Assembly (NCBI GenBank): GCA_043745785.1
Contig: JAYTSG010000004.1
Coordinates: 570-64,569, forward strand
Origin: a bacterium
Lineage (GTDB): Bacteria; Patescibacteriota; Minisyncoccia; Phycocordibacterales; UBA5272
Reading direction: 5' to 3'
Length of the DNA stretch: 64,000 nt
In this document: positions 11,076 to 63,832 of the stretch, piece after piece
Position numbering within the stretch: position 1 is the stretch's first letter
How the letters are laid out: each line of letters opens with the position of its first letter
Made by a program: the position numbers and the translations under genes
Notes under the pieces: generated by a model
Seen by the model: the letters and a program-made list of their open reading frames with translations, nothing else
Database searches by the model: none
Told to the model about the DNA's origin: nothing

Positions 11076-11093
11076 AAACTCAATACTAACATG

Positions 11094-11133: not shown

Positions 11134-11152
11134 CGCGAGGAGTAATACATGA

Positions 11153-12290: not shown

Positions 12291-12295
12291 ACTGT

Positions 12296-12482: not shown

Positions 12483-12524
12483 TGAGCTCTACCTATTTTC
12501 TATTTCAGAAATTAATCTGTGTAA

Positions 12525-12800
12525 ATTCTGTATCTGTATCTGTGTCTGTGTCATACCGGAAGGATTTTGTACTCAAAAACTATCCGGTATCCAGGTCTAT
12601 AATTGTAGAGAGTATCCCCCTAGAAAAAATGCCAGTACGTTAAACATTCACACTGGGTGCGTGATTACTCTGGTTTGACCTATCGTTAAAGTCAAAACCT
12701 GGATCCTGGATATGATGAGTACATCATATCCAGGATGGTGCACTCGTTATTCTGGAATGGCATGCAAGATACTCAGTGCGACTGGAGACTGGAGACTGGA
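12525..12800. repeat. Composite repeat region: (TCTGTA/TCTGTG) tandem run, inverted ATCCGGTATCCAGGT / ACCTGGATCCTGGATAT / CATATCCAGGATGG motifs, and a (GACTGGA)x3 tandem run
   Basis: Read directly. It shares the ATCCGG(A/T)ATCCAGGT and TTCTGGAA(G/T)GGC motifs with the element at 10929-11075. Confidence 0.65.
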
Positions 12801-13058
12801 ATACTTGATTCTGACATACTAGACCTCTTTCAGATGTCTTATGTATACATGTGTAAACATCTAGAATACATAGAGCTGTAATAGTGCTTAGCTATATGTA
12901 TTTGCAAACCAAATGGGTGACTCAACTCCGCGAGGAATTATGTGACCACATAACTGAAATAACTGACGAAATGAGCTTTATTGTCACCACAAAAATGTCT
13001 CATATTTTGCTATACTAGAAGCAACTCATTATTAAAATAAAAACGTTTGACTACACAT

Positions 13059-15718: not shown

Positions 15719-16705
15719 ATGGAAAAATTACTTACTAAACATATACTTCTCTTTCTGAGTTCTGCTTTATCGCTTCTTGCATATGTTTACCATAGCGCTA
15801 ACGCTTTTTTAATACTCGTTGGCAGGTTCTTCCCTACAATAAAAGATACAGAGTACGGATTAGACGATCTCAGTGGTTCATTTTACGGCCCGCTCTTTAT
15901 CTCTCTGTTCTTTGGTATTTCGTTTGTTATTTTGTATTTTTTCTTTCTTAAAGAATCATCTGAAGAGAATGAACTACTTTCTGGGTTGAGACGTCTTTTA
16001 AAGCTGTTCTATGTTCTAACTCTTATTACCTTTGTACCATTCACTCTTTCTTCCCTTTTTATTCTAGGAACATACAAGCAGGCTATCTATACACTTCTCT
16101 TTTTGATAACTCTCTTTTTATTAACTGGACATCTATTCTTCTTACCTAAACTAATAAAGAAAAATATTATCATAAACGCGTTTTTACCAGCTCTGATCCT
16201 TCTCCCAATTGGAATGCTCAGCCTTGGCATAATCACCTATGGTACACCTCACGAGAGGTCACTCGCATTATTAGATCTACAAAAAATACACCGTATTGAT
16301 ATTGTTGCAAGCTCTGTACCCTCTTTTGTTTCAGAGAAAAATAGACTACCGGAGACACTAGAAGAACTTTCTAACTCGATGGATGATATGGATAATACTA
16401 ACTCTTCTTCTTATGAGAAGAAGAGTTTTTTCGACCCTGAAACAGGAACTTACTTCATTATAAAAGATTATGGGGATAAACTTTTGTCACCAAACACTCA
16501 GAATAACTACCCTGTAGCAGATGGTTTGCATACAAAAAGATATGGCATTTGCACCGTCCTGCATCTCGACTTCGAGAGAATTACCTTCCTCCTTGGTAAG
16601 GACTACTTAGTATCGAAAAGTAGAGCAAAGGCTGGTACTTACTGCAAGATGTCTGATTACACAATATTTGACCAAGCTAACACAATTAATCCCCCTTACG
16701 AGTAA
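15719..16705 (+). CDS. Hypothetical polytopic membrane protein
   Basis: 328 aa. ~6 predicted TM helices are followed by a soluble C-terminal domain. No recognised family. Confidence 0.45.
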   Translation: MEKLLTKHILLFLSSALSLLAYVYHSANAFLILVGRFFPTIKDTEYGLDDLSGSFYGPLFISLFFGISFVILYFFFLKESSEENELLSGLRRLLKLFYVLTLITFVPFTLSSLFILGTYKQAIYTLLFLITLFLLTGHLFFLPKLIKKNIIINAFLPALILLPIGMLSLGIITYGTPHERSLALLDLQKIHRIDIVASSVPSFVSEKNRLPETLEELSNSMDDMDNTNSSSYEKKSFFDPETGTYFIIKDYGDKLLSPNTQNNYPVADGLHTKRYGICTVLHLDFERITFLLGKDYLVSKSRAKAGTYCKMSDYTIFDQANTINPPYE

Positions 16706-28604: not shown

Positions 28605-28732
28605 GCAAATAGTATACCACTTTGGTTTATCATTAATAATTCTAGATCTTCCGTCATTTATTGTTAATGAGCAGAGAAAGTATTTTTATATTTTGAACTA
28701 AATCATATTTTTTTCTTTCTTTTTATACAATA

Positions 28733-28890
28733 GACCTCTTTCAAAAGTCTCAAAACTTTCCTGCATTAGGATTCCTGCGAAGACAGGCCCAAGACATGAA
28801 TTTGATAATTCAGAATACAGTATGTATTATAATACTATTTGATTTCAATTTTTACTTAGAGTGATAGCAGAGAGGCTTTTGAAAGAGCTC
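28733..28890. repeat. MITE-like palindromic element, longest copy (TIRs GACCTCTTTCAAAAGTCTC / AGGCTTTTGAAAGAGCTC)
   Basis: ~158 bp. The ends match the family at 6845, 11153 and 30006. The internal ATTCCTG...AATTCAGAAT motif is shared. Confidence 0.7.
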
Positions 28891-29159
28891 TACTACTTTC
28901 CAGAATCATCAAGAAATCTAGCTTCGAAGAGTTAGAAATAACCACAATTTCTAATAAGACAAATCTGAATTTACCTTTATTCCTTCCTACGCTATATGCA
29001 ACCCGCAAGAGTTATCTTAGGGGTTGACCGTCTCATCTGCCTTGTTCTAAGAGTTGTGGGAGCTTTTTGAACTACTGAGAAAGGTCTAGGTCTTACAAAA
29101 CTAATTCTATTTCTTTTTAGTTGCATGCCGAACAACTTTGAAAATATCTCAACTAAACA

Positions 29160-29795: not shown

Positions 29796-30005
29796 GGGGA
29801 TATTTTACCACAAAAATGAGAAACAAAAAATGTTGTTTCAATGAGCTGTGAGTTACTAATAAGTCTTCGTCTTAAAGTTTCTTTTTCAGAATGAAAACCC
29901 CTTAGCACAACTAAAATCTAGTCGCGCGCGTAGTTTAAAAGAAACACACATTTAGTGCTACTACTCAGAGGAAAAGCACTCTACCTTTTTACAACACTTA
30001 TAATA

Positions 30006-30092
30006 GACTTCTTTCAAAACCACCCCCCTATCATTCTTGAATTGGGTAATTCAGGGATGATAACTTTGTTTGTTAGGGTTTTGAAAGAGGTC
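30006..30092. repeat. MITE-like palindromic element, near-perfect copy (16-bp TIR GAC(T/C)TCTTTCAAAACC)
   Basis: GACTTCTTTCAAAACC...GGTTTTGAAAGAGGTC with an inner IR CATTCTTGAATT / AATTCAGGGATG. 87 bp. Confidence 0.8.
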
Positions 30093-30350
30093 TATTAAAC
30101 TGTCTTCCTCTAGTGTCCTTCGCTTGCGTTAGTAAACTATCTAAAAACTCTCCGCAAGAAACAGTAACTCTCACTGTGAGGGAGCAGGTCTATCGATGAT
30201 CATCGTAAAACAAATTTGATGTACACTAAACATCCCAGGACTTACGCCACGGGGTATTATGCGCGAATAAATCGCTCCACGATATGTTATGAGCTTGTTT
30301 TATGTCTATAAAATACTGTGTTTTAATGAAGAGAAACTTTTTGAAAAACA

Positions 30351-39785: not shown

Positions 39786-41015
39786 TTAGAAGGTATTAGC
39801 AAGATTAAAGATAGGGAGCATGATAGCCATAACAAGGAGTGACACCATCAAACCCATACCAACGATCATGATTGGCTCAATAAGACCAATAGTAGAATCA
39901 ATAGCACCGTCTACTTCTCTCTTATAAAACGACGCAAGATTTTTTAAAATATAACCGAGCTCACCTGTCTCTTCACCAATTTTCGCCATCTGCGTCAGTA
40001 TACGAGGTACATCATCTTCTTCAGAAAGTGCTTGAGAAAAGGTCATACCATTTTGCACTTTATCGGAAACTCTAAAAAGAAGGTCATGGTAAATAACATT
40101 CTCGACTACGTCTGCCGTAATCTCAATAGAGCGAACAATAGGCACCCCACTCGTCAGCATCGTATTCATGTTATCAGACAATCGTGCGAGGAATATCTTT
40201 TGTGTTAAATCTTTTATAGCGGGCATTTTTGTAGAAAGTTTATCAAAGAAATAATGACCACTTTTTGTTCTCGAAAATAAAACTACTCCCCAGCCGCCGC
40301 CTATAACTATAGGAAAAATAATATAGGCATTGTGTTGTACAAACTCACTCATGGCAAGAATAATACGGGTAATGGCAGGAAGGTCTGCTTTATTATCAAA
40401 CATTGACGCCATCTTTGGAATAACGAAGGTAAACATACCCAGGAGTATAAAAATAAAGACAACAACGACAAAAATTGGATACATAAGTGCCTTTTTTGTT
40501 TTCTGTTTGAGCTCATAATCACGGTCGAGAGAATCTGCAAGATAGAGAAAAGATTCATTGAGCTTTCCACTTTCTTCCCCTGCTTTTACCATACTCACGT
40601 AAAAGGTTGAAAAAAGATCTGGCTCTTTGAGCATGGCATCCGACATAGACATACCTGTTTGTATATCATCAGCCACCGAATTGAGTCTCTTAACGAGTGT
40701 TTTATTTGGGTTTTCTGCAGCCAGCATCGTAAAAGCTTTCAGCGCTGACACACCAGCTTCAAAGAGTGTTGATATTTGTCTCGAGAAAATAACAATATCT
40801 TTTGGTTTGATACTTGGTTCAAAAATAGCGAGAGATATTTTAAAAGGAGGATTTTCAGGCTCTGCTTGTGCTAACTCTACTTTCTTTTCTTCTATATCAG
40901 TTACGACAATACCATTTGTCTGAAGTTCAGCGACAGCTTCATCGTGGCTAACACTTTCTATGTCTCCTGTTTGCTCAATTCCATCTGCTTTCACTCCTTT
41001 GAATGTAAAAAACAT
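39786..41015 (-). CDS. pilC: Type IV pilus assembly platform protein PilC (GspF family)
   Basis: 409 aa with two GspF repeats, each with 3 TM helices. The N-terminal cytoplasmic domain is MFFTFKGVKADGIEQTGDIES... Confidence 0.85.
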   Translation of the reverse strand: MFFTFKGVKADGIEQTGDIESVSHDEAVAELQTNGIVVTDIEEKKVELAQAEPENPPFKISLAIFEPSIKPKDIVIFSRQISTLFEAGVSALKAFTMLAAENPNKTLVKRLNSVADDIQTGMSMSDAMLKEPDLFSTFYVSMVKAGEESGKLNESFLYLADSLDRDYELKQKTKKALMYPIFVVVVFIFILLGMFTFVIPKMASMFDNKADLPAITRIILAMSEFVQHNAYIIFPIVIGGGWGVVLFSRTKSGHYFFDKLSTKMPAIKDLTQKIFLARLSDNMNTMLTSGVPIVRSIEITADVVENVIYHDLLFRVSDKVQNGMTFSQALSEEDDVPRILTQMAKIGEETGELGYILKNLASFYKREVDGAIDSTIGLIEPIMIVGMGLMVSLLVMAIMLPIFNLANTF

Positions 41016-41021
41016 ACAGTA

Positions 41022-42080
41022 TTAAAAAAGTCTCTTAAGTAACGATGGGTTACGACTACGTTCGAGAGCAACGTCCGGAAGGACTTCCCCCCTACGCACA
41101 AGATCAGCGAGACAACGATTAAGATCTATCATGCCATCCCCCGAACCCGTTTCTATAACTACGTCTATTTCGTGTGTTCTTTTTTCACGAATAAGATTCG
41201 AGACTGCATTATTATTAATAAGAAGCTCGTACGCAGGCACCAGCCCTCCAGACGCACGGGGAAGTAGTCTTTGGGAAAAAATACCGAGTAGTGATGCGGC
41301 GAGCTGTATGCGAATTTGATCTTGCCCATCTGACGGGAAAGAGTCAATAATTCTGTCGACTGCTTGGGCAGCACTGTTGGTGTGTAGCGTCGAGAGGACT
41401 AAGTGTCCTGTCTCAGCTGCCGTCACCGCAGTCGAAATAGTATTTTTATCGCGCATTTCACCAATAAGTATCACATCTACATCTTGTCTAAAAGCGGAAA
41501 CAAGAGCTGTACTAAAGTCTGCTGTATCAATACCTACTTCACGCTGATCAATCATTGACTTATCATGCTCAAAAACGAATTCTATCGGGTCTTCGATGGT
41601 TACAATGTGTTTTTTTGTTTCTTTATTGATTTGGTCGACCATCGAAGCGAGCGTTGTTGATTTTCCTTGTCCTACTGAACCAACGACAAGAAAAAATCCT
41701 TGCCTTGCCCTTGCCATTTGACTAATTTGAGAAGGAAGACTCAAATCATTTAATTGCCTTGCACGTGGTATGAGACGAAGAGCAACAGCTACAGAACCTT
41801 TTTGGAAAAATGCATTCCCTCGAAAACGATACTCCCCTTTATGGTTATAAGAAAAATCAAGTTCTTGTCTCACAACAAAGTTAGTAAAGACACGTTCACT
41901 GACCATCTGCCTTAATAAGCCTGCTGTATCTTCAGCAGTAAGTTGTTTTCGTTTCAGTAATGGAATCAAATCTCCATTCATACGAATAGTCGGAAATGTT
42001 CCAACAGTAATATGGAGGTCGGAGCCTCCTTCTTTAATAACTGTCATAATGAGTTCATCTAACTCTTGTGTGTAATTCAT
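41022..42080 (-). CDS. pilT: Twitching-motility / retraction ATPase PilT
   Basis: 352 aa. The Walker A motif is GSVGQGKSTTLASM. The Asp box, His box (LVLSTLHTNSAAQAVDRI) and the PilT-specific C-terminus are present. Confidence 0.85.
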   Translation of the reverse strand: MNYTQELDELIMTVIKEGGSDLHITVGTFPTIRMNGDLIPLLKRKQLTAEDTAGLLRQMVSERVFTNFVVRQELDFSYNHKGEYRFRGNAFFQKGSVAVALRLIPRARQLNDLSLPSQISQMARARQGFFLVVGSVGQGKSTTLASMVDQINKETKKHIVTIEDPIEFVFEHDKSMIDQREVGIDTADFSTALVSAFRQDVDVILIGEMRDKNTISTAVTAAETGHLVLSTLHTNSAAQAVDRIIDSFPSDGQDQIRIQLAASLLGIFSQRLLPRASGGLVPAYELLINNNAVSNLIREKRTHEIDVVIETGSGDGMIDLNRCLADLVRRGEVLPDVALERSRNPSLLKRLF

Positions 42081-42106: not shown

Positions 42107-43843
42107 TTAAAGACTGTTAATTTCTTCAAAGGGAACTTTTTGCTGTATGCACTTTATCATCGCATCTTCACGGAGTGTCATCATTCCATTCTTTCTGGCA
42201 ATCATTTTTAATTCATCTTCTCTTTTTTGCTGTATAATAGCCTGTTCAAGTTCAGTATCAATGGTAAGAATTTCAAAAACAGGAATACGACCTTTCATTC
42301 CCGTTGGATATTCATCATTTCCTTCTGCTTCAGTAAAAGGTTTATCAAGAGGCAGTATACTTCTAAAAGATTCTGGTAAATCTTTAAACTCATCTTGTGC
42401 CATCGTTATCAATGCTGGAGTCATCTCCATCGTTTTAGCACAGCCTGGCGCCACACCACGGACCAGACGCTGACCGATGGCAGCGTTTAATACTGGAGCA
42501 ATAAGGTAAGGTTCGATTCCCATATCAAGTAGTCGCGTTACAACACCGATAGCACTATTGGTGTGAATTGTCGAAAACACCAAGTGACCAGTAAGTGCAG
42601 CCTGTATCGCAAGACCTGCAGTCTCAGCATCTCGAATTTCTCCTACCAGAATCACATCAGGATCTTGACGAAGTATAGAGCGGAGTCCTGATGCAAAGGT
42701 ATAACCAATTTCAGGAAACACCTGAGATTGGTTAATCCCCGCAATGTTGTATTCGATAGGATCTTCCAGAGACACTACATTACGATGTTCCTTATCTACC
42801 TGTCCAAGCATCGAGTAAAGTGTTGTCGTTTTACCAGAACCAGTCGGACCAGAAACGAGAATAATACCATATGGTTTTCCTATGGCTACTTGTATTTGAG
42901 ACCAGTGTTGCTTCGAGAGACCTACAGTGTCCAGTGGTCTAATACCTTTATGACTATCCAAAATACGAAGCACAACCTTTTCACCATAATAACCTGGAAA
43001 AGTTGAAACACGATAATCCACTTTGTACTCATTTAATTTTGTACTAAAACGTCCGTCTTGTGGTTTTCTTTTTTCATCAAGCTTAATAGAGCAAAGAATT
43101 TTAATCCTGGCAATAAGTACTGCATGAAAAGTTGGAGGCATAACAAGTACCTGCTCAAGAGATCCATCGATACGACATCTCACACGTACATTTGGTCCGA
43201 CATGCTCTATATGAATATCAGAAGCATTATGGGTTAATGCAAATTTAAGCACTTGATTAAAAATTTCTGGTATTGGTTGTTCGAGGAGATGTTCATCTTT
43301 CAGGTCACCACTATACTCCGTGAGATCTGCAACGCCGTCAGCATCTTTTTTTGGTTCCCCTTCTTTCTTTTTTATTTCTGTATTTGGCTTTGCTATCGCA
43401 GCAGGAGTTTCTTTCGTTTCAAGTGATTTCAATAAGCGAGTATACTCAAGATATTTTGCCTCTGAAATAATAAAAAGTTTATAGACAGTCAACTTTTGAC
43501 TAAAAATAAACTGTAGAGCTGAGAGGGCGTTAGAGAACTCAGGGTCAACAAGGCCAACAGACAGCACCTGATCATCGAGCATAAGTGGTACCGCTTTATA
43601 TTGTTTTGTCTGCTCCAGACTAATGGTAGCTAGCAAAGCGTCGCTCTTTTTTACTTCTCCCACATACACAGGAAGACCGTACAAAAGTGACCGAGCTTCG
43701 GCCACATCTTCTTCTTTAATTCCTTTTTCAATCAAAATCGTATCAATTGATTTACCTGTCCCTTGCGAAAAGACACGGTCAATCTCTTTTGAAACGACTT
43801 CAGTTATTTTATTTTGACTAACGAGAAGATCGAGAAGGAGCAT
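42107..43843 (-). CDS. pilB: Type IV pilus assembly ATPase PilB (GspE family, with N-terminal GSPII domain)
   Basis: The Walker A motif is GPTGSGKTTTLYSM. HLVFSTIHTNSAIG and the C-terminal Cys motif CAKTMEMTP.. are present. The track ORF starts at TTG 43852, and the first ATG is at 43843. Confidence 0.85.
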   Translation of the reverse strand: MLLLDLLVSQNKITEVVSKEIDRVFSQGTGKSIDTILIEKGIKEEDVAEARSLLYGLPVYVGEVKKSDALLATISLEQTKQYKAVPLMLDDQVLSVGLVDPEFSNALSALQFIFSQKLTVYKLFIISEAKYLEYTRLLKSLETKETPAAIAKPNTEIKKKEGEPKKDADGVADLTEYSGDLKDEHLLEQPIPEIFNQVLKFALTHNASDIHIEHVGPNVRVRCRIDGSLEQVLVMPPTFHAVLIARIKILCSIKLDEKRKPQDGRFSTKLNEYKVDYRVSTFPGYYGEKVVLRILDSHKGIRPLDTVGLSKQHWSQIQVAIGKPYGIILVSGPTGSGKTTTLYSMLGQVDKEHRNVVSLEDPIEYNIAGINQSQVFPEIGYTFASGLRSILRQDPDVILVGEIRDAETAGLAIQAALTGHLVFSTIHTNSAIGVVTRLLDMGIEPYLIAPVLNAAIGQRLVRGVAPGCAKTMEMTPALITMAQDEFKDLPESFRSILPLDKPFTEAEGNDEYPTGMKGRIPVFEILTIDTELEQAIIQQKREDELKMIARKNGMMTLREDAMIKCIQQKVPFEEINSL

Positions 43844-44198
43844 AGGTTTCAAAAGGATTAGTACGTCCTTTTGGACCTTCTATTATTTGTGTTATGTGCT
43901 CTGTATTATCTTTTAATCCTTCAATATTTTTTTTCAGTATCTCAGAACCATCGAAAGTCACTCCAGTCTGAGCTTTTAGAGCCTCTATTTCTGGACTTAA
44001 AGGTACTGATTGTGCTTTTGCTGGTTCTTGTAAACTTAAGAGATTAACAGAAAAAAAGTAACCATAGACAGCGAAGAAGATTACAACAATAAAGGTATAA
44101 ATAACACCTTGAAATGCCTCAAATCTCTTGGTGACATTACTCACTATTGGTTTGTTTTTTAGGTCGATTATTTGCATATTATCGTAATTTATAGACAT
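43818..44198 (-). CDS. Hypothetical single-TM protein in pilus operon (PilP-like position)
   Basis: 126 aa with an ATG start. It overlaps the pilB start by ~26 nt. One TM is followed by a soluble domain. Confidence 0.4.
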   Translation of the reverse strand: MSINYDNMQIIDLKNKPIVSNVTKRFEAFQGVIYTFIVVIFFAVYGYFFSVNLLSLQEPAKAQSVPLSPEIEALKAQTGVTFDGSEILKKNIEGLKDNTEHITQIIEGPKGRTNPFETYAPSRSSR

Positions 44199-47271: not shown

Positions 47272-47562
47272 AGATACCTTTTTATAGATTATTTTTCTAG
47301 ATACACCACATTATGGAAATAGTTCGTTAGGTAACTATTCAATATAACCATTACATTTTACTCTCTTACTTTCTTCTTTTTTACAGAATACTTTCCGTAA
47401 ATATTTGAAAGCTGATCCAAGACATACCTTTACTAAGTTAGCTTAGAAGAGTTAGAAATTGACCACAACTTCAAACAAAAAATACTAACACAGTATGAAT
47501 ACAGACCTACTTGTTTTGAAGATATCAAGAATACTTAGTTCCGAGGTTTGTACATAAAGATA

Positions 47563-48821: not shown

Positions 48822-50162
48822 TTAGGATTTCTGCAAAGTGTCGATATCTGTCTGTATGGAGTAGACCCGCCTCATAACCTGATTACCATACTGAGCTCCA
48901 TCATTACTTTTTGAACACGATGAGCCCGAATAATATTTACAAGCTGCAGTTCTTTCTGTTGTCTCATTACCAGAAACAGCTCCAAGATCAGAGAGATATA
49001 TTGCTGTTGCTGTTATAGCATGATACGGTAGCCATGGATCTGCAGCAGCTCCTACATCCTGCGATATACGATTTGCAAGAATTTTCCATGTTGATGGAAT
49101 AAACTGTGAAGGCCCCATCGCCCCTCCCCATCCGTAGGGATTCCCTTTGTTATACAGTGGTATCCAACAAGAAACAGGCGTCTTTAATGGATCTCGACCG
49201 AGCTTTTGAGTAATCTCAATAAATACAGGAACGTCACGCGTTGGACTCATGGTGCGTATTTTACTAGCTCCACTTTTAATACCTATTCCATTTCCTGTTA
49301 GGTAGTCAGAGATGTAGCAAGCTCCAATGTCTTTACCGAGCTGTGACTCTTGTGTCAAAATTGCAAGTATAAGAGCCGGCCTAACTCCTGTAGCTTTAGA
49401 AGCAAGTAAAGCATAATCATATGCTTGTCCAAAAGATATATTACTGCTGTCACGCAGCGCAAATATCTTCGCACGTATTTTAGAAGCTTCAACTTGCCTA
49501 GTGGCAAGCACTTTTTTGTACTGAGTTTCTTGACCTTTAGTTTGACTAAGCAAATCATTCTTTTCTTTTTGATTCATCTCTACTCTCTTTTTTTCCACCT
49601 CTTGTATAATCTTTCTCGCCACTTCTTCATCTTTAGCATCTTGTAGTTCTGTCTTAACATCTTCAATCTTATCTTTTGACACTTTGATGTCATTAAAAGA
49701 ATGATTGATAGATTTCTCTAATGTCTGATACGAATCTCTGTCTGAGAAAAAACCAGAAAGAGTTTTTTCTTGAAGTGAATAGTCAAGTAGATTATAGGCA
49801 GTTAAATAGTTTTTCTTTCGGAAAATTTGTGCTAAAGATTCTTTTTCTCGAGCAATCTTTGCATCGAGTTCTTCAAGAGCTTTATCTTTTTCAGTAATAT
49901 TACTGTTTAATTTAAGTATCGTCGACTGGGTTGATTTTATTTTTAACTTACTCTCTGAAATTTTTTTTTCGAGAAGTTTAATATCACTTTGGAGACCCGT
50001 ACCTTTGCCACGAGCGACGCTAATATTGTCTTGTAATCCTCGTATTTCATCTTCAAGGCTCTTTAACTGATCACGAAGATCAGATTCAGTATCCGCATGA
50101 ACTGTAATGAAGGACAATACCAAGAAGAGAGGTAGTACAAAGTGGAACAGTTTATTTTTCAT
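48822..50162 (-). CDS. Secreted coiled-coil protein with C-terminal lytic transglycosylase domain (MltB/Slt-like)
   Basis: The signal peptide from the ATG at 50162 is [23 protein letters not shown]. ~230 aa of coiled coil follow. The catalytic region is ...[14 protein letters not shown]...[16 protein letters not shown].... Confidence 0.7.
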
Positions 50163-50268
50163 TGTTACTTTAGTATACCAAAAAAGTAGGTACTTTGGTG
50201 CGATTGTACCCATAACAAAAAGCGAGAACTATCTCGCTTTTTGTTATGGGTACACTGAAATAGTGATA

Positions 50269-50811
50269 TTACGCCTTCTTAAAAGGGATGCCGATAATTT
50301 CAAAGAAACGAGTAGCTTCTTCTTTTGTTGTTGCTGTCGTACCGACAGTAATAGCCATACCGAATACATCTTTTAAATCTTCTTCACCTACTTCTGGAAA
50401 AATAGTTTGTTCTTTGATACCAAAAGTGATATTACCCATAGAGTCAACAGAAGTACGACTGATGCCACGGAAGTCTTTTGTACGAGGAAGAGAAATATTG
50501 AGAAGTCTATCTAAAAATCCGTACATACGTTGACCACGAAGAGTCACTGCGACACCAATCTCATCACCTTCACGAATCTTAAATGAGGCATTTGACTGCT
50601 TCGCTTTTCTGACGGTAGGCTTCTGACCAGTTATCTTTGCAATTCTGTCTACGACTAGGTCATTTCTCTTACGATCTTTTTTCATCATGGTTCCTGTTGC
50701 GACAGAAACATTTATCTTGGTGAGCTTTGGAGCTGCATGGATATTTTTGTAACCAAATTCTTTCTGAAGAGTCTCGTAAGAAGCTTTTTGTTTATCTTGT
50801 ACTTTGTTCAT
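50269..50811 (-). CDS. rplE: 50S ribosomal protein L5
   Basis: An ATG at 50811 gives MNKVQDKQKASYETLQKEFGYKNIHAAPKLTKINVSVATG.... It is separated from rplX by an inserted ATPase gene and a ~1 kb spacer. Confidence 0.9.
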   Translation of the reverse strand: MNKVQDKQKASYETLQKEFGYKNIHAAPKLTKINVSVATGTMMKKDRKRNDLVVDRIAKITGQKPTVRKAKQSNASFKIREGDEIGVAVTLRGQRMYGFLDRLLNISLPRTKDFRGISRTSVDSMGNITFGIKEQTIFPEVGEEDLKDVFGMAITVGTTATTKEEATRFFEIIGIPFKKA

Positions 50812-51892
50812 ATGACTTTGAAGCATGATTAGCAAGGATACCCTTGCGTTATACATCGCTTTCTTAATTAATAGTGTCCGTGTACTCTACCATAAAATAG
50901 AGGAAAAGACAACAAAGAGACAAAAAGAAAGACATACTTTCTCACACTCTTGAAACTAAACAAACGTCATCACAAAACCAACCCCAACCCTTGATTCACA
51001 AGATCTTCCAGTGCATCTCTCATTCTCGAAAGAAGTACTTTCAGAACTTTTTCAAAACCATTTACCAATGTTTTAACATCCACAAAGAATGAAAAGTGGC
51101 TCGTAAGATTTTCTCAATCGAAATAAAGTCTACATTTCTCCACCACACTCCAGTCAATCACTCGAATTTTGGTTTTAGGATATCATTCCACTACAGACAG
51201 GATCTGCTCTGCTCTTGTAGGCAACTCAGTCCTCTGCTTCGTATCGTCACCACACCCCCAAGTGAGGGGTAAAAACCATGAAGAACACTTCCACGATGGG
51301 GGCGATGGGTACACGGATCATGAGAAACAAAAACTGGTAGCTTACCTGTGTCTAACACTAGCAAAAAAGGTCTTTCCTCACTCATTTCAGTAAACACTTG
51401 AAGGACCCTCATTAACTAATGAAGCGTGTAGTTTCGTCTACGCTAAATACCGACAACCTTGCTCATATTGTGACAATAAAGTTCCAGGTCAGATACCTTC
51501 CCTCACTCCATTCGTATCGGCGAGGTATCTACAGGAAATGCGGCAGAGACCGCAGGGAATCAAATTTAAAACCTTTCTCTCCACTCAGAGGAACTGTAAA
51601 ACTGTTAAGAACTCTCCAGAAAAACTAGGCTTTTATGAGATTTTTTGCAAATTTTTTTTGAAGGATTCTGGCTTAGCCGTATATGAGATTGACATATCCA
51701 TCTAGTATCTAAAAACTCTTTACTGTTTAAAAATGAGATGCTTAGCCTTGCTACAAGAGGTAGGCAGAGGACTGGTACCATTCCCCAGCATTGGATAATG
51801 TATATACATATATGGTGTTTACTATCAATCACAGATATACATACAAATAATCATCAAAAACAATCACAGTGTTCCTACTTTTGCTTTTATTT

Positions 51893-53086
51893 TTACAAAA
51901 CTGTCGCGATATTCTCAAGAGTAGTAATGCCCGCATACACTTTTTCTAAGGCATCAGTCTTGAGTAATTTGGTACCGCTCGTTACTACATACAGCTCTAG
52001 ATCTGCCATAGACCGGCCTTCCACAATCATAGAGCGGAGTTTTGTATCAAATTCAAGCACTTCAAATATCCCTGTTCTCCCAAAGAAGCCTTTTTTATCA
52101 CATTTTTCACAACCAGCACCATGTACGAAGTGATGTTCTGAAGGGTCGATTTTAAAATGAAGAAGAAATTCTTGCGCTGGTACATACTCTACTTTACAAA
52201 ATTCACAATTCTTTTTAACGAGCCTCGTCGCTATGACACCATTAACGGCATAGGCAACCATGCTCTTCTCTATATTCATATCTATAAGTCTCGCGATAGT
52301 TCCAGCACTAGAATTGGAGTGAAGAGTAGAAAAGACAGTACGTCCGACCAATGCTGCACGCACAGCGTATTCAGCGGTCTCTGCATCGCGAATTTCGCCA
52401 ATCATAATAGTGTCTGGGTCTTGGCGCAAGATAGATTTCATACCTGAAGCAAAAGTAAGTCCTCTATCTGGATTCATTTGTATTTGACGGATTTTATCAA
52501 AACGGAACTCAACAGGATCTTCGAGGGTAATGACATTTTTATCTTCTGCCATGGTTTCATTAAGCACTGCATAGAGAGTAGAGGTTTTACCTGATCCAAC
52601 AGGACCAGTAACAAGCATCATGCCGTTATTTCTTCTTGCTATTCCTCTTACTTTTTCAAGAGTGATTGGATCCATGCCAAGCTGGTCGAGATGTAAGACA
52701 TGCGAAACAGAGTTAGCTATACGAAAAACAGCAGCATCTCCATAAATGGTAGGGAAGACAGAGATACGTATGTCAATAACCATCGGTTTGTTTTTAGCTG
52801 GATCATTATCCTCATACATAAAGTTAAGGGAAAAGTGACCATCTTGAGGAGTAAACACTGACGTTGTATTGAGTTCGGCGAGGACTTTCAAATGAGTGAG
52901 CAGCTGATCATGGTAACTCATTGGAAAACTAATATAAGGCGTCAGTGTTCCATCTACTCTAAACCGTATTCTAACCTCATTGATACTTGGGTCAATATGT
53001 ATATCAGACGCACGACGATTCACACCATCCAAAAACATAGTTCGCACAAAATTAGGAACGTCATTTGAATGAGTGTTTGTTTCCAT
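51893..53086 (-). CDS. Third GspE-family secretion/pilus ATPase (short form, ComGA/PilB-like N2+CTD with C-terminal tetra-Cys Zn site) inserted in the ribosomal protein cluster
   Basis: An ATG at 53086 gives METNTHS.... The Walker A motif is GPVGSGKTSTLYAV. The Asp box is ITLEDPVEF. The His box is VFSTLHSNSSAGTIARL. The Cys motif is CEFC...CEKCDKKG. ~397 aa. Confidence 0.8.
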   Translation of the reverse strand: METNTHSNDVPNFVRTMFLDGVNRRASDIHIDPSINEVRIRFRVDGTLTPYISFPMSYHDQLLTHLKVLAELNTTSVFTPQDGHFSLNFMYEDNDPAKNKPMVIDIRISVFPTIYGDAAVFRIANSVSHVLHLDQLGMDPITLEKVRGIARRNNGMMLVTGPVGSGKTSTLYAVLNETMAEDKNVITLEDPVEFRFDKIRQIQMNPDRGLTFASGMKSILRQDPDTIMIGEIRDAETAEYAVRAALVGRTVFSTLHSNSSAGTIARLIDMNIEKSMVAYAVNGVIATRLVKKNCEFCKVEYVPAQEFLLHFKIDPSEHHFVHGAGCEKCDKKGFFGRTGIFEVLEFDTKLRSMIVEGRSMADLELYVVTSGTKLLKTDALEKVYAGITTLENIATVL

Positions 53087-53191
53087 AAAAGGTACTAGTT
53101 CTAGTATAATGAGTTTACAAGAAAAAGCGAGGAAGTTGTGAGAAAAAAAGAAATCCGCAAAGCGGATTTCTTTTTTTCTCACGTTTTTTTC

Positions 53192-53449
53192 TTACTCAGA
53201 CTTCAACTTTGCAACCTTCTTTTCTGGTTTTGCTTTTTCTTCAATAAGCTTCACATTTGAAATGTGTATTGGTGCCGGCAAGGACACAAGTCCACCTTTC
53301 TCACCTGTTTTTGTTGGCTTTACGTGACGCTTCATGAGATTAAGCCCTTCGATAACAACTTTATCTTGATCACGAAGTACGCGAGCAATAACACCCTTCT
53401 TTCCTTTTTCTTTTCCTGCAATGACTAGTACGGTATCTCCTTTTTTCAT
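53192..53449 (-). CDS. rplX: 50S ribosomal protein L24
   Basis: MKKGDTVLVIAGKEKGKKGVIARV.... Confidence 0.9.
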   Translation of the reverse strand: MKKGDTVLVIAGKEKGKKGVIARVLRDQDKVVIEGLNLMKRHVKPTKTGEKGGLVSLPAPIHISNVKLIEEKAKPEKKVAKLKSE

Positions 53450-53838: not shown

Positions 53839-54105
53839 CTAGTTATTTTCCACCTTACTGATTACTACAAAAGACTTATCTTTTGAAATGGGTTTTGATT
53901 CTGCAATGATGACTTTATCCCCTACTTTATAGGTGTTATTCTCATCATGAGCTTTGTACTTCTTATCTATCTTAAAGTACTTTCCGTATTTCTTGTGCGC
54001 GATAAAGCGAGTCACATTCACGACGACTGTCTTATCCATTTTATCTGATACGACAGATCCCTGTAATGTTTTCTGTATTCCTTTGTTGTGTGTCGTTGTT
54101 GTCAT
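53839..54105 (-). CDS. rpsQ: 30S ribosomal protein S17
   Basis: ...KTLQGSVVSDKMDKTVVVNVTRFIAHKKYGKYFKIDKKYKAHDE.... Confidence 0.9.
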   Translation of the reverse strand: MTTTTHNKGIQKTLQGSVVSDKMDKTVVVNVTRFIAHKKYGKYFKIDKKYKAHDENNTYKVGDKVIIAESKPISKDKSFVVISKVENN

Positions 54106-54109
54106 ACCT

Positions 54110-54538
54110 TTAGTTTAAATCTCTTCCAATTACGCGTGTCCTTACGGGAAGCTTTGTTCCTGCTTTTCGAAGTGCTTCGCGGGCAACTTCTTCAGTTACA
54201 CCATCTACTTCAAAAAGTACTCTTCCTGGTTTTACTTGAAAACAGTACCCCTGAAGATCTCCCTTACCTTTACCCATCGGAACTTCAGCCGCTTTCTGTG
54301 TTACTGGTCTGTCTGGGAAGATGCGAATCCAAATCTTTGCTGTCTTGCCTGCATGACGGGTCATAGCTCTTCTTGCTGCTTCGATTTGCTTTGAATCAAT
54401 GCGAGATGGCGTCTCTGCTTTGAGACCAAATGAGCCAAAGGCAACAGTGATACCTCTTGTCTCAGGACGCGCTAGCTTTGCTTCTGAAAGCCTTGCTGTC
54501 TGCCACTTTCGATGTTTAACTTTTTTTGGGAATAACAT
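54110..54538 (-). CDS. rplP: 50S ribosomal protein L16
   Basis: [41 protein letters not shown].... Confidence 0.9.
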
Positions 54539-58874: not shown

Positions 58875-60071
58875 CTATGCGATAATCTTAGTGACGACAC
58901 CTGCCCCGACAGTCTTGCCTCCTTCACGGATAGCAAAGCGCTGTTGTTCTTCAAGAGCGATAGGAGCGTGAAGCTTCACGGTAAACTTTACGGTATCTCC
59001 TGGCATGACCATTTCTGTTCCTGCAGGAAGAGTTACTTCACCAGTAACATCAGTAGTACGTACGTAGAACTGTGGCTTGTAACCATTGAGAAATGGTGTA
59101 TGACGACCACCTTCATCTTTCTTAAGAATATATACTTCACATTCGAAATCTGTATGAGGCTTGACGGTACCTGGCTTACAAAGTACCTGACCACGCATGA
59201 TATCTTCTTTCTTGATACCACGGATAAGTATACCCGCGTTATCACCTGCTTGACCTTCTGAGAGAGACTTGTTGAACATTTCAATACCCGTAACAGTAGT
59301 AGTCACTGTATCCTTGAGACCGACAATTTCTACTGTGTCGTTAATTTTAAGAAGCCCACGTTCAATTTTACCAGTAACAACAGTACCACGTCCTTCAATG
59401 GTGAAGATATCTTCAACAGGCATAAGGAAAGGCTTTGCAACGTCACGAATAGGAACTGGAATGTAGTTATCGAGAGCATCCATTAGTTCTACTACTTTCT
59501 TTGCCCATGGATCATCGAGAGATGTCGCAACAGAAGCTTTCAGTCCAGATCCTCTGATAATTGGAGTAGTAACACCATCAAAGCCTTGCTTTGTAAGGAG
59601 TTCTCGGATTTCTTCTTCAACGAGTTCGATCATTTCTTCATCATCAACCATGTCACACTTGTTGAGGAAGACGACGATTTTTGGCACACCCACCTGCTTG
59701 GCAAGGAGAATGTGTTCACGAGTCTGTGGCATAGGACCATCAGTTGCTGCAACAACGAGTATAGCACCGTCCATTTGTGCGGCACCGGTGATCATGTTCT
59801 TGATATAGTCAGCATGCCCTGGTGCATCGATATGAGCGTAGTGGCGAGCCTTAGTCCAGTATTCTGAGTGAGAAAGTGAAATAGTGATACCACGAGCTTT
59901 TTCTTCTGGAGCCTTGTCGATATCATCAACACCCTTCACTTTAATGGTTGGATCCATGAGGTGAAGTACGTTAAGGATAGCCGCGGTAAGAGTTGTCTTT
60001 CCGTGGTCTACGTGCCCGATGGTTCCTACGTTTACGTGTGGTTTGTCGCGATTGAATTCTATTGCTGCCAT
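58875..60071 (-). CDS. tuf: Translation elongation factor Tu
   Basis: An ATG at 60071 gives [32 protein letters not shown].... DCPGHADY and NKCD are present. Confidence 0.95.
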
Positions 60072-60260
60072 ATGTTTTTGTATAGTCATGCCTCCCAAGA
60101 AATAATTTCTTGGTGGTAGTAGACTTTTAAATTAAAATTGAATAAAAATACACTTAGCCAAGCGGACACATAGAGAAATGCTAAGTGGTAGAATTATAGC
60201 ACGCTCTTTACACATTTGCAAGACAAGACCTCATCTTACTCTTATGCTGACAGCCAAGAT

Positions 60261-60394: not shown

Positions 60395-60682
60395 TTAGAC
60401 TTCTTGATACGTCGCTATCACTTCTTTACTGCTTTCTGCAACGAAAGCATCCAAATTGGGCACTTCTGCTTGAAAAAAGGCTTGGAGTGCTACGTTATCC
60501 GCACTTTGTAGTACCGTGTCAAAGCGTATGATTTGCTCATCTGAAAGAGACTCAGCGACTTTCAAAAAAATAGTTTGCAAAATAATACCTCCGAGAGCAG
60601 AAACAATTTTCTCTACCTCTTCTTGCGATTTTCCTTCTAAAGATAGTGCTTTGACTATTTGTTGTTGTATTTCTGGGGTCAT
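60395..60682 (-). CDS. Hypothetical small protein (95 aa)
   Basis: The ATG lies 10 bp after the stop of the upstream 1046-aa gene, so the gene is probably co-transcribed. Acidic and helical. Confidence 0.4.
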   Translation of the reverse strand: MTPEIQQQIVKALSLEGKSQEEVEKIVSALGGIILQTIFLKVAESLSDEQIIRFDTVLQSADNVALQAFFQAEVPNLDAFVAESSKEVIATYQEV

Positions 60683-60691
60683 GATATTGCT

Positions 60692-63600
60692 TTATTTATT
60701 AGTATTAATACTTATACTTAGCATCCTATCTAAGAAGGATCCTCCATCCCTTAATTGATTTACCCCAGGAATGCTGTACTGTACATGATATTTTTTTGCT
60801 AACCCAACCAACTTCTCTAAATTAATTTTATCTTCAGGAACTAAACGATTGATATCTCCGCTTGAAAAACCAATAGCTCTAAGTTCTTCCGCAGAAAGGA
60901 AAGAAAGGTTTCCTATAAGGTTTTTTATACCTTCACTATTTAACTCATTGAAATTATCGCCAAATTTGCTAACTAACATATCCCTTATTACATCTTTATG
61001 GGCAATGAGAAGCTTCGTCGCGGTATCTCCTGGTGCAACGCCTACCATGATAGCACTTACTGTATCTGTTGTGTCATGATCTGTTGATATCTCAGTAATT
61101 TTTTCCAAACTAGCTGAAGAAGCAGTACTAGCTGAAGGTTTCTCTATACCTCCAGCCATCTCACTTGCAGGCACGCCGAAAGAAATATGCTCTGAAACCC
61201 ATGTACCAAAATGATGAAAATCATGTATCGACCCAAGAGCAAAGACAGCGAGTCCTACACCCCAGCCAATTTTATTCGCGTCTTTTTTCCAATTCTCATT
61301 CAATCTACTTGCTTCAATGAATTTTTGAGCTCCTTTTGCAGCTGCTATAGCAGAGAATCCGCGAAGAACTACTTTTGCTACTCCTACCGTTGCTATCACA
61401 GGCGCCACGCTGAGAGCTGTACCTACGAAACCTAAACCAATCAAAGAAGCTGAGAGGACGAGCTTTGTTTTTGGTTCTAATTTTTCATACTTTTCTGGCA
61501 AACTTTTTATAAAAAGGTACACCCTTTTTTCAGCTTTTTCTGCTTCGGGTGTACGAATCGAAGTAAGCGCTTCAGCTTGAGGGGCCTGTATACTCACTGG
61601 CGAATCTAAAACAGGTTCAATTCTCGCTAGCTGTGGACCAGTTCCAACTGTTCTTTTCATGCCAAATCCTTCTCGCAGGTTACCGTACATTTCATCTTTT
61701 AATGCCTTGACAGAATTGAGCATTTTTTCCTTAACAGAATCAGTTTTTTCAAGAATCTTTTTTAGAGAATGTTCTTTTGCTTGTTTTATACCACCCACAA
61801 TCCTCGCTCTCGTCTTTGTAGCGAATCCTCGCAACACTGAACCAAGTTTACTCACACTACTCGCTTCAATTTGTATACGTGGGTAAAACTGATTAAGAAT
61901 ACCAAGAAAAGCTTCCAGTTTTGCTATTTTTTCATTGTCACCATCTTCCTTATGTTCTTTATTTTCCAAAGTATTCTTTTCCCTAAGAATACCTTTTTTA
62001 GTTGCTCGAATTTTCTTCTCTGCTTCATTGGTAACCTTTTCAGCCACAAGATTTGCACCAAAGATTGAAAGATTTTCTAGAATTAAAGCTGAGTTTTGGT
62101 ATAGTTCTTCGAAATTAAGGTTATGTAACAGTTCGAAAGAGTTTTCTGCATTTTCTTTTTCCAATGCACGCTGATCACTAAGACTAGGCACAGCCGAATC
62201 ATTACTTGCTTCAGCACCTATCACTTGAGGTTTCTCACCGTCACCTACAGGAGACATTTCTCTTAGCAGTTTTTTTAAACTAGTTATAACATTTTCAAAG
62301 ATGCCATTAACTTTACGTCCGTCTCCGGCTTCACTTTTTTCAGTCTTATCTTCATCTTCATTAAGACTCTCCAATAAATGAATCATGACTTCAATATTAT
62401 GTTGTGAATCACACTTTTTCTTTATTTCTTTAAGGATTTCGTTCTTTTTTTCAACGAAAAGGAGTTTTATCTGCTCAGCATTTTTAGTAATAGAAAACGC
62501 TTCACCCGTAAGTAGTATTTGCGCAGCTGCTTCCACTGTAAGATTATTCTTCTCTCTTTCTTCAGGTTTTTCTACAAAAAGAGAAGACTCACCCGTAGCT
62601 TGTGGCACTTCATTTTGACTTTGCTGAGCATTTACTACATCACCAGTGAGCTGATTTACTACATCTTGAACTTGCTCATCTGTGAAAGCTTTTTTAATAC
62701 CAGCAACGGCTGCTAGATCGTCTGGACTTACTGTCCCCCTATTCATCAGAATAAGCCTCTTTACGTACACAACAATTTTAGCAATAAACTCAGGGTTCTT
62801 ACCCAATGATTCAATTGCATTTCCATTATTTGGTTGCACTAAAGCAATGAGAATTGCACCAAAATCGGGAGCAGCTCCGCCACTTTGGAATAACGGTTCG
62901 AATACTGTTTCAACATTCTTTATCCGTTGTTCTTCGCTTACTTGGATTGTAGCATTAGACTCTGCTACAGCATCAAAAGACTCTACGGTCGCTACAAAGT
63001 CAGAAGGGTCAGTACTTACATTATATAGGTAATCTATAAGCTTTTCCTCAGCATCTACTCTATTTTTCATTGCAGTTGCGGTATCTTCATCTGTCTCAGA
63101 TTTCATACCCTCTTTTACAGAAGCGACCCTATCGACCAGACTTATAATAGAACCACTAAAACTTGATTGTTTTTGAAGATAATTTTTAACTTCATCTCCA
63201 TCTCTATCCATTACAATATCTTTACATAAAGCTTGAAGATCTGTTGTAGAAATATTATCGCCGTTTAGAAAGTTTTTTAGTTTATCGGCTAGTAATTTTT
63301 TATTTTGAGAGAGCCTGTCATACGCACCTACTAAACTTGCTTCTAAGCTTATTTGAGAGTTTGCATTTAATAAAGCTTCACGTGTATCTTGTGTAGAAGG
63401 TCCACCAAAAGGAGTCAGTGTGTCGTCTCTTGGTGTTACTGTTACCAAACCTCTAGTTGTGATTAACATAACTTTATTTATTAGAGCGATTGCCTGCTCA
63501 CACAAAGCTGTCGCTGAATGGTCATTCTTATCACGAGAATCCTGTAAACGAAGAAAGATCCTATCATGAGCTTCACTGAGAATTATATTAAACCTATCTT

Positions 63601-63832
63601 CATGACCATGTATTTTTTCTCGCAATAGACCAACCATAAGTTTGTCATCAAGAGACCTTTTAAGATCATCTAGGTTTTCAATAGTACCTCGAAGCAAACC
63701 ATTGAGACTTCCTAAAAATATTTTTTCTGGAGTTGCTTCAATAATATTCATATCTCTCAGAAGATCTGGACCATCTGGGTGTGGTATTGTATCTTGTGCT
63801 GTAACTAAATAATTTGGAGGTAACTCTGACAT
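60692..63832 (-). CDS. Large hypothetical protein (1046 aa): long soluble helical/coiled N-terminal region, C-terminal segment with 3-4 TM helices and an HDFHHF motif
   Basis: ATG start. No recognised catalytic domain. The hydrophobic stretch LVLSASLIGLGFVGTALSVAPVIATVGVAKVVL...IGWGVGLAVFALGSI lies near residue 800. Confidence 0.5.
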   Translation of the reverse strand: MSELPPNYLVTAQDTIPHPDGPDLLRDMNIIEATPEKIFLGSLNGLLRGTIENLDDLKRSLDDKLMVGLLREKIHGHEDRFNIILSEAHDRIFLRLQDSRDKNDHSATALCEQAIALINKVMLITTRGLVTVTPRDDTLTPFGGPSTQDTREALLNANSQISLEASLVGAYDRLSQNKKLLADKLKNFLNGDNISTTDLQALCKDIVMDRDGDEVKNYLQKQSSFSGSIISLVDRVASVKEGMKSETDEDTATAMKNRVDAEEKLIDYLYNVSTDPSDFVATVESFDAVAESNATIQVSEEQRIKNVETVFEPLFQSGGAAPDFGAILIALVQPNNGNAIESLGKNPEFIAKIVVYVKRLILMNRGTVSPDDLAAVAGIKKAFTDEQVQDVVNQLTGDVVNAQQSQNEVPQATGESSLFVEKPEEREKNNLTVEAAAQILLTGEAFSITKNAEQIKLLFVEKKNEILKEIKKKCDSQHNIEVMIHLLESLNEDEDKTEKSEAGDGRKVNGIFENVITSLKKLLREMSPVGDGEKPQVIGAEASNDSAVPSLSDQRALEKENAENSFELLHNLNFEELYQNSALILENLSIFGANLVAEKVTNEAEKKIRATKKGILREKNTLENKEHKEDGDNEKIAKLEAFLGILNQFYPRIQIEASSVSKLGSVLRGFATKTRARIVGGIKQAKEHSLKKILEKTDSVKEKMLNSVKALKDEMYGNLREGFGMKRTVGTGPQLARIEPVLDSPVSIQAPQAEALTSIRTPEAEKAEKRVYLFIKSLPEKYEKLEPKTKLVLSASLIGLGFVGTALSVAPVIATVGVAKVVLRGFSAIAAAKGAQKFIEASRLNENWKKDANKIGWGVGLAVFALGSIHDFHHFGTWVSEHISFGVPASEMAGGIEKPSASTASSASLEKITEISTDHDTTDTVSAIMVGVAPGDTATKLLIAHKDVIRDMLVSKFGDNFNELNSEGIKNLIGNLSFLSAEELRAIGFSSGDINRLVPEDKINLEKLVGLAKKYHVQYSIPGVNQLRDGGSFLDRMLSISINTNK

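Follow-up and report, generated by a model that had tools for sequence, protein, structure and literature searches.

In Escherichia coli, the ribosomal protein uS8 binds a structure in the messenger RNA (mRNA) of the spc operon at the start of rplE, the gene for uL5 (Fu et al. 2013, PMC3616713). This operator is built of a helix, a conserved internal loop and a variable distal helix, is placed to block translation of L5, overlaps the coding sequence of rplE and regulates, by translational coupling, a polycistron of 10 genes. The title of that paper reports the structure as restricted to Gammaproteobacteria. Other ribosomal-protein leaders, as collected in Rfam or by Eckert and Weinberg (2020, PMC7247131), are short conserved structures in the 5′ untranslated region (UTR) of a ribosomal-protein gene that are supported by covariation; the 2020 survey adds 20 new ribosomal leaders and mentions neither rplE/uL5 nor Patescibacteria. 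Here we describe the surroundings of rplE in a bacterium of the Patescibacteriota, within a window of 64,000 nucleotides (nt) of contig JAYTSG010000004.1, to which all coordinates refer unless a related locus is named. The canonical S10-spc-alpha cluster has rplX followed by rplE and then by rpsN-rpsH-rplF. In the window, a GspE-family ATPase gene and a spacer of 1081 base pairs (bp) stand between rplX and rplE, and rplE itself is followed by genes of other kinds.

Our reading of this locus, held with moderate confidence, is that the S10-spc cluster is broken here throughout a whole lineage, a clade within Candidatus Paceibacterota, and that the locus comprises three separate transcription units, a variable slot and a candidate operator upstream of rplE. 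The first unit, the tuf/S10-type operon, would end at an intrinsic terminator right after rplX. The second would consist of the short PilB/GspE-type ATPase gene behind its own promoter, and the third would be a monocistronic rplE with its own extended -10 promoter, a 41-nt structured leader and its own terminator. The features that make up these units are as follows, in the order in which they would be transcribed:

53192 to 53449, minus strand: rplX (uL24), the end of the contiguous S10-type run (Pfam KOW and ribosomal_L24)
53138 to 53182, minus strand: intrinsic terminator predicted after rplX by a terminator scan, with core hairpin GAAATCCGC-TTTG-GCGGATTTC followed by T7 and extendable to 20 bp
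53103 to 53108, minus strand: TATACT, the candidate -10 box of an ATPase promoter, 16 nt upstream of the ATG
51893 to 53086, minus strand: short GspE/PilB-type ATPase of 397 amino acids (aa), with N2 and C-terminal domains only (Pfam T2SSE)
50922 to 50942, minus strand: weak hairpin AGAAAG-TATGT-CTTTCT followed by T5, read from the sequence, the probable terminator of the ATPase unit
50884 to 50912, minus strand: putative rplE promoter, read from the sequence, with -35 TTGTCT, a 17-nt spacer and extended -10 TGgTAGAGT (-10 box at 50884 to 50889)
50821 to 50861, minus strand: structured rplE 5′ leader of 41 nt and two helices, ending 9 nt before the AUG at 50811
50269 to 50811, minus strand: rplE (uL5), 180 aa, apparently monocistronic (Pfam Ribosomal_L5 and L5_C; start placed by conservation)
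50209 to 50250, minus strand: strong terminator after rplE, with inner hairpin GCGAG-ATAGTT-CTCGC followed by T5 and an outer extension (folding z-score -6 to -9)

The leader occupies the interval between the -10 box and the AUG of rplE, a position that fits a ribosomal-protein leader. The start codon was taken to be the ATG at 50811; an in-frame ATG upstream of it, at 50856, is the one chosen by open reading frame (ORF) callers and is not conserved, being ACG in the related locus L023 and out of frame in L024. Helix P1 is formed by AAGC(G)AUG and CAUGCUU (50861 to 50854 with 50827 to 50821, one G being bulged), is followed by the internal loop UAUAAC/UAAU, and is capped by P2, the hairpin GCAAGG-GUAU-CCUUGC at 50847 to 50832. 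This structure is exactly the minimum free energy (MFE) fold of the single sequence, and the same MFE architecture is found in ten out of ten distinct sequences. The consensus of these ten relatives, from the -10 box to the AUG, reads AAGCG(A/C)(U)GUAUAAC ... (G)CUAAUC(A/G)U(G/A)CUU(C), while the place of P2 is taken in relatives by unrelated hairpins or, in L036 and L013, by a three-way junction.

Compensatory changes are seen in both helices. Within P1, a U-A pair is replaced by C-G in L023, L025, L038 and L009, and L009 also shows G-C to A-U and C-G to U-A; within P2, a G-C pair has become A-U even between the window and L005, one of the two loci of its sister species. In the trimmed alignment 87.5% of cells can pair, as against 22 to 44% when the partners are slid, and double-sided changes are found at four of nine pairs. 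RNAalifold finds P2 independently, with five doubly changed pairs. Run on the alignment fitted to the model, the same program put P1 out of register (three sequences are without the bulged G), and P1 was tabulated by hand and from single-sequence folds. Over nine loci and 292 kb, a covariance model of the leader matches each locus once, in every case immediately before rplE, and has no match elsewhere. None of the Rfam 15 models matches the leader. Taken together, these results are suggestive of a new candidate ribosomal-protein leader, with uL5 or uS8 as its candidate ligand.

The function that seems most likely for this leader, and that we propose only tentatively, is that of an autogenous translational operator, bound at its conserved internal loop either by uL5, for which it would mimic the 5S-rRNA site, or by uS8 as in E. 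coli. Binding of the ribosomal protein would stabilise P1 and interfere with initiation at the AUG; since the 3′ strand of P1 ends 9 nt before this AUG, stabilisation of P1 would be expected to obstruct initiation. The likeness to the E. coli operator lies in the succession of helix, conserved internal loop and variable distal helix at the start of rplE. Unlike the E. coli structure, the leader in the window lies wholly within the 5′ UTR, that of an apparently monocistronic rplE with a promoter of its own, and its loop UAUAAC/UAAU matches only partly the S8 site in helix 21 (h21) of E. coli 16S rRNA, an AUACU/AAGU loop next to C-G and A-U pairs. The leader shares with the catalogued ribosomal-protein leaders its short length, its place in the 5′ UTR and its covariation.

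If the proposal is correct, Patescibacteria would have their first described ribosomal-protein leader and, were uL5 to be the ligand, the leader would also be the first that responds to uL5. It may then have arisen, or have been retained, because rplE was separated from the spc operon in this clade, and the locus would illustrate how regulation of a ribosomal protein may be rewired when an operon breaks, with rplE gaining a private promoter, terminator and structured leader. We know of no ribosomal-protein leader of such a kind catalogued in the phylum.

The break itself can be read from the order of the genes, all of which lie on the minus strand. The ORF map gives tuf, rpsJ, rplC, rplD, rplW, rplB, rpsS, rplV, rpsC, rplP, rpsQ, rplN and rplX, with ORF sizes that fit these genes from tuf (58875 to 60098) to rplX; Pfam assignments of the gene calls at L004 and L005, two near-identical relatives, run in parallel (EF-Tu, S10, L3, L4, L23, L2, S19, L22, S3, L16, S17, L14, L24). 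Up to this point the locus resembles the canonical S10-spc-alpha cluster, with rpsJ to rplX contiguous, in canonical order and right after tuf. It differs in having no rpmC between rplP and rpsQ and in the separation of rplX from rplE, between which come the ATPase gene (51893 to 53086) and then the gene-free 1081 bp from 50812 to 51892. It also differs in what follows rplE (50269 to 50811), namely a lytic transglycosylase rather than rpsN, rpsH and rplF:

48822 to 50162, minus strand: lytic transglycosylase with an SLT domain (Pfam; the 446-aa start follows the gene call at L001)

Beyond it lie rpmE (L31), prfA (RF1), a divergent comF, pilM/N/O, pilB, pilT, pilC and pilins, as assigned by Pfam and NCBIfam. 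The initial annotation had this order and its coordinates exactly right, and its claim that the rplX-rplE and rplE-rpsN/rpsH junctions are broken, with a GspE-family ATPase in the first break, is supported here. The absence of rpmC (uL29) is seen at the junction of rplP (54110 to 54538) and rpsQ (53839 to 54105), where 4 nt separate the genes (54105 to 54110); relatives share it, the corresponding junction in L004 being at 9726 to 9731.

Comparison with relatives places the break in a wider setting. The genomic context of relatives was obtained mostly from exact-protein look-ups, because searching GTDB genomes and JGI metagenomes for loci by protein gave few close relatives. The set used for synteny comprises lineages with at least 61% ATPase identity: the window, L004/5, L023, L024, L007/8/13, L014, L015, L034/35, L036/37, L016/25, L009/10 and L038. 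In all 12 of these 12 lineages (61 to 100% ATPase identity) the ATPase gene lies less than 4 kb from rplX, from rplE or from both. Homologues with 55% identity or less are found in unrelated contexts, and in L032, with 56% ATPase identity, rplX is still only 3.8 kb away. Since the ATPase keeps to rplX and/or rplE in every lineage of the set, the broken arrangement is ancestral to a Candidatus Paceibacterota clade; it is lineage-wide and not a recent insertion. The ATPase had been taken as inserted into the ribosomal cluster as a peculiarity of this genome, an idea that these relatives do not support: judged by the refuting condition that the initial annotation set for itself, its presence there is ordinary in this lineage.

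The neighbourhood is old and its details vary. The ATPase gene has the same orientation as the ribosomal-protein genes in eight of the 12 lineages and is inverted relative to them in L009/10, L016/25, L024 and L038. Up to 3.6 kb of other genes separate rplX from the ATPase in L007, L009 and L038, encoding an ice-binding-like protein, a sortase, NrdR, an AAA_28 protein, a methyltransferase and an acetyltransferase. In L038, rpsH is still found downstream of rplE, five genes away. The clade thus has two loosened junctions, rplX/rplE and rplE/rpsH, that gather cargo.

The interval between the ATPase and rplE is a variable slot: some relatives have almost nothing there, others unrelated cargo. It measures 179 to 273 bp in six lineages, and about 225 to 270 bp in the sister species (L004/L005, 90% ATPase identity). 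In L016/25 it has 942 bp and holds an ORF of 194 aa; in L023 and L036 it has 1589 and 1705 bp, with Bax1-I and non-homologous hypothetical genes; in L015 it exceeds 1.7 kb and contains three ORFs; and in L035 it is occupied by a 1433-aa Ig-like protein. The window has 1081 bp and no gene. GC content is also raised just upstream of rplE in L023 (4073 to 4910, 48.6% vs 41.1%) and L036 (5086 to 6050, 48.8% vs 44.5%); the hypothetical ORFs in these segments (141 and 205 aa) have no homology to each other or to the window spacer.

These relationships matter beyond the present genome. Phylogenomics and binning of the candidate phyla radiation (CPR) make use of a block of 16 ribosomal proteins that is commonly taken to be contiguous. 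A clade of Paceibacterota that splits the block after uL24 and isolates uL5 behind variable cargo must be kept in mind when marker blocks are extracted and when contigs are called chimeric. The rplE leader and this clade-wide split of the marker block are the two points that we consider most worth keeping.

The division into transcription units is predicted from terminator and promoter signals. After rplX, where the local folding z-score falls to -5.4, termination is predicted from the sequence: L004, L005, L023 and L007 also have a hairpin and T-tract at this place, with stems of unrelated sequence (in relatives CAATTCA/TGAATTG, GCGACAC/GTGTCGC and AACGCC/GGCGTT), and this combination of a fixed place with unrelated stems is what marks an intrinsic terminator as conserved. 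It is followed, in the window, L004 and L005, by a conserved block that ends in the TATACT hexamer; the hexamer is identical in these three and in L023. No good -35 element was found upstream of it. The conserved hairpin and T-tract together with the conserved -10 box make co-transcription with the S10 operon unlikely, and the ATPase is probably transcribed on its own.

The initial annotation had proposed the opposite, namely that the ATPase is embedded in the S10-spc operon, the most highly expressed of the cell, and is probably co-transcribed with it, which would give it expression at the level of ribosomal proteins. The two genes do lie on the same strand, with the ATPase 105 bp downstream of rplX, the orientation is shared by the eight lineages mentioned above, and terminators can be leaky. 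Even so, we regard co-transcription as distinctly improbable in view of the post-rplX hairpin and T-tract, which have been kept through compensatory change, the conserved -10 box that follows them, the inversion of the ATPase in four lineages, and the genes that separate it from rplX in three.

Our preferred arrangement, with separate ATPase and rplE units, is completed by the signals upstream of rplE. The putative rplE promoter has a counterpart in L004/L005 (TTGCTT-17-TGgTAGAAT), and a -10 box of the form TAGAGT, TAGAAT or TAGTAT is present upstream of rplE in all ten distinct relatives. Where the window has the weak hairpin at 50922 to 50942, L004/L005 have a stronger, GC-rich hairpin with a GAAA loop and different stems. 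From these signals we infer that promoters are used at both the ATPase and rplE. The terminator scan detected no strong terminator between the ATPase stop codon and 50942. If no efficient terminator precedes the weak hairpin, the DNA between ATPase and hairpin, some 943 bp, would form a long 3′ extension of the ATPase transcript.

The ATPase is, by its motifs and alignments, an ordinary member of its family, a PilB/GspE-type motor core without the N1 domain. Its T2SSE match (PF00437) covers residues 8 to 393 with an E-value of 3.7e-99 and 332 bits, against a gathering cut-off of 24.9; it aligns to positions 111 to 484 of GspE and 176 to 561 of PilB in NCBIfam, and to PilF, PilB and GspE cores in the PDB at E-values of about 1e-85. 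The translation contains Walker A (GPVGSGKTS), Asp box (VITLEDPVE), Walker B (DPDTIMIGEIRD) and His box (VFSTLHSNS) motifs, and a complete tetracysteine (zinc) motif, C294xxC297...C326xxC329. Like the hexameric PilB/PilF/GspE ATPases of known structure (Thermus PilF 5oiu/5it5, PilB 5tsg, Vibrio GspE 1p9r/4ksr), it has the full N2 and C-terminal motor core with all motifs; it differs from them in having no N-terminal N1/MshEN-type domain, in its length of 397 aa and in adjoining rplE rather than lying within the pil cluster. The absence of the N1 (GSPII_E_N/MshEN) domain separates it from full-length PilB, GspE and ComGA, and the NCBIfam equivalog cut-offs are all missed (score/cut-off: GspE 397/630, PilB 389/676, ComGA 228/300). 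An archaeal-type identity was rejected, FlaI scoring 43 bits, as was a PilT-type identity. The window has further ATPases of this superfamily in its pilus cluster, and the short ATPase is indeed the third GspE-type ATPase besides PilB (42107 to 43852) and PilT (41022 to 42080), which are accompanied by a PilC/GspF gene at 39786 to 41015. It is 36% identical to the 581-aa PilB. At the aligned tetracysteine positions this long PilB has no cysteines; the short ATPase keeps all four. Family and neighbourhood suggest that the short ATPase probably serves the type IV pilus or competence machinery encoded about 5 kb further on.

The spacer between the ATPase and rplE, exactly 1081 bp (50812 to 51892), was singled out in the initial annotation as free of any convincing ORF and visibly richer in GC than its surroundings. 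It is truly non-coding: none of the frames is open, and no gene is called there in three independent assemblies, whose identical sequence also shows that the spacer is not an assembly artefact. The GC claim holds in part. GC content is 0.388 in the spacer as a whole, 0.396 in the window, 0.402 in coding and 0.364 in other non-coding DNA, and it is only a central segment that stands above the background; this segment is no higher than the adjacent ribosomal-protein genes, and the spacer flanks have 0.33 to 0.36. Alignment to the 225-270-bp spacers of L004/L005 divides the 1081 bp in two, with only the last 110 to 140 bp or so being alignable. The two elements of interest are:

51100 to 51560 (461 bp), no strand assigned: central GC bump, 44.7% GC, at about the 91st percentile of 300-nt windows and thus not exceptional
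50950 to 51892, no strand assigned: orphan non-coding stretch of about 943 bp, species-specific, with no ORF and no match in any search

For the spacer, the initial annotation put forward three possible contents: a structured RNA, the remnant of a gene, or a scar of integration. A structured RNA does exist in the last 70 nt or so of the spacer, the rplE leader, which is unrelated to the GC bump that had drawn attention; for the orphan 943 bp none of the three could be demonstrated. The only conserved non-coding function between the ATPase and rplE is that of the rplE promoter and leader. For the orphan stretch, the most likely account, as we infer it, is that it is an inert residue of acquired or eroded cargo with no sequence-specific function. 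Given that the content of the slot varies between lineages, a residue of cargo turnover is the most economical reading of these 943 bp.

A variety of searches was directed at the stretch and its surroundings. At gathering score, Rfam 15 gave no match over the whole window, the spacer included (RNase P, transfer-messenger RNA (tmRNA), signal recognition particle (SRP) RNA, 6S, group I/II introns, OLE, GOLLD, ROOL and ribosomal-protein leaders being covered). At E-values up to 10 on 50600 to 52100, only sub-threshold chance matches were seen, to mir-280, small nucleolar RNAs (snoRNAs) and viral elements, and ARAGORN found no tRNA or tmRNA. Degraded genes, another of the possibilities raised, left no detectable homology. 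Pfam was empty on the six frames of the orphan stretch. The plus-strand frame of position 50857 (+0), compared by phmmer with 1.84e9 protein representatives, gave a single match (E 6e-4) that is a tandem-repeat artefact, and a word-index search of the three minus-strand frames against 5.8e9 proteins gave none; frames +1 and +2 were compared with Pfam and the ORFs of relatives only. Searching the stretch by tblastn with ORFs of related loci, among them Bax1-I, the hypothetical proteins and the 194-aa ORF, found nothing. At the nucleotide level there was no match by blastn to phages and plasmids, none of exact 22-23-mers in JGI metagenomes and IMG/VR, and none by nhmmer or blastn to 35 related loci or elsewhere in the window; local alignment of 50950 to 51892 to the L004/L005 spacers gave scores equal to those of shuffles.

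Coding signals in the stretch point in two directions. Log-odds from codon usage fall below zero in every frame (-0.11; real genes have 0.36 +/- 0.10), and a period-3 signal is absent (chi-square 6.6, p 0.35; 31 to 61 in genes). The +0 frame has only 8 stops, compared with 18 to 23 in the other five, and contains a span of 192 codons with a single stop (P ~0.007 by dinucleotide shuffles). An eroded protein-coding cargo gene of roughly 190 to 330 codons on the plus strand, antisense to the ribosomal genes and lost through nonsense mutations, would account for this deficit, the more readily as the same slot in relatives holds intact cargo genes. The idea overlaps in part with our preferred explanation, which allows eroded cargo as an origin of the stretch. 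As a specific claim it is unlikely: besides the missing periodicity and a codon usage that is not host-like, the frame has no Pfam domain, only the repeat artefact among the 1.8e9 representatives and no tblastn match to the ORFs of relatives, and its translation is rich in Cys, His and Phe, unlike the proteins of the window. An alternative genetic code was considered and rejected, the stops in the spacer being a mixture of TAA, TAG and TGA and the host genes ending in all three.

Folding analyses bear on a second possibility, that the minus strand encodes a large species-specific structured non-coding RNA (ncRNA) or gives the ATPase mRNA a functional long 3′ UTR. The minus strand of the spacer is rich in G+U and folds better than the plus strand (-273 vs -218 kcal/mol), the 461 bp of the bump have 44.7% GC within an otherwise AT-rich spacer, and, as said, no strong terminator would stop transcription between the ATPase and 50942. 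The sliding-window z-scores are nevertheless ordinary on both strands, from -1.9 at best to +0.7 in 200-nt windows of the minus strand, and only the two flanking terminators stand out. Rfam gave no family at gathering score and only chance matches when E-values up to 10 were allowed, none of the relatives has a homologue and hence there is no covariation to draw on, and the sister species manage without the stretch, their spacer being about 225 to 270 bp long; such an RNA must be considered very unlikely. A long imperfect AT-rich hairpin at 51784 to 51862 (minus strand), some 30 to 110 nt past the ATPase stop and with no T-tract after it, is the site of the mir-280 match (25.7 bits against a gathering score of 70). 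As a caution, a gene-free stretch of 1 kb with a local GC bump in a small genome need not hide an RNA gene.

The third possibility is a scar left by a mobile element, be it an insertion sequence (IS), a miniature inverted-repeat transposable element (MITE) or an integrative element, that targets a site upstream of rplE. Turnover of the slot content between lineages would suit such an element, as would a DDE transposase inserted nearby, between prfA and comF, in L004, and the presence of a short repeat family in other intergenic gaps of the window. Against this, the spacer has no terminal inverted repeats, tandem repeats or target duplications apart from short repeats at chance level, no second copy was found in the window or at related loci, no transposase or integrase remnant was detected in any frame searched, and the rplE spacer does not contain the repeat family of the window's other intergenic gaps. 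We rate a scar as highly improbable. A replication origin was also looked for in the spacer and rejected, there being no cluster of DnaA boxes.

Several points weigh against the overall interpretation and should be taken into account. The covariation of the leader comes from ten distinct sequences of related lineages; it suggests a conserved structure and is not statistically rigorous. The resemblance to 16S h21, in loop strands of AUA/UAAU type beside a C-G, A-U helix, is partial, and the leader has no evident equivalent of G597-C643. Promoters, terminator efficiency and read-through are predictions from the DNA sequence. Inert DNA alone does not account for the stop deficit of the +0 frame, which is a hint of a former ORF; an old ORF of foreign origin on the opposite strand would fit it, an idea that nothing else supports. 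Finally, the GC bump and the skew at 50851 to 51150 stay unexplained by inert DNA. Nowhere else in the window is the GC skew as extreme as in this last segment (-0.377 on the plus strand, the minus strand being G/T-rich), which is situated shortly upstream of the promoter of rplE.

Some further features of the region may be recorded. Upstream of tuf, in place of rpsL-rpsG-fusA, lie genes for proteins of 95 aa (60395 to 60682) and 1046 aa (60692 to 63832) with no NCBIfam match; the same pair is present in L004, with no Pfam match on record there. The DDE transposase of L004 (DDE_Tnp_1) is located at 15852 to 16643 of that locus, and the prfA-comF interval of the window consists of a gap of only 291 bp with 29% GC (47272 to 47562). 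Coding density of the window, from a crude gene map, is only about 84%, low for a small genome. The spacer is not unique in its length without an ORF: other long stretches with neither a convincing ORF nor a coding signal occur at 10284 to 11453 (1170 bp), 12291 to 13046 (756 bp), 28605 to 29159 and 29796 to 30350, and none has an Rfam match. The intergenic repeat family consists of a repeat of about 50 nt with consensus ATACAATAGACTTCTTTCAAAACTCTCCCATGTCATTCCTGAATTAGC, common to the gaps at 6830 to 7011, 11060 to 11200, 28715 to 28775 and 29990 to 30110 and also seen at 12530 to 12610 and 47430 to 47490. In two of these gaps there is a second block, AATACTAAC..GATCCCCGGTTCATTTGGGTACAAATGCCCGAGGATGACA, with 85 to 93% identity.

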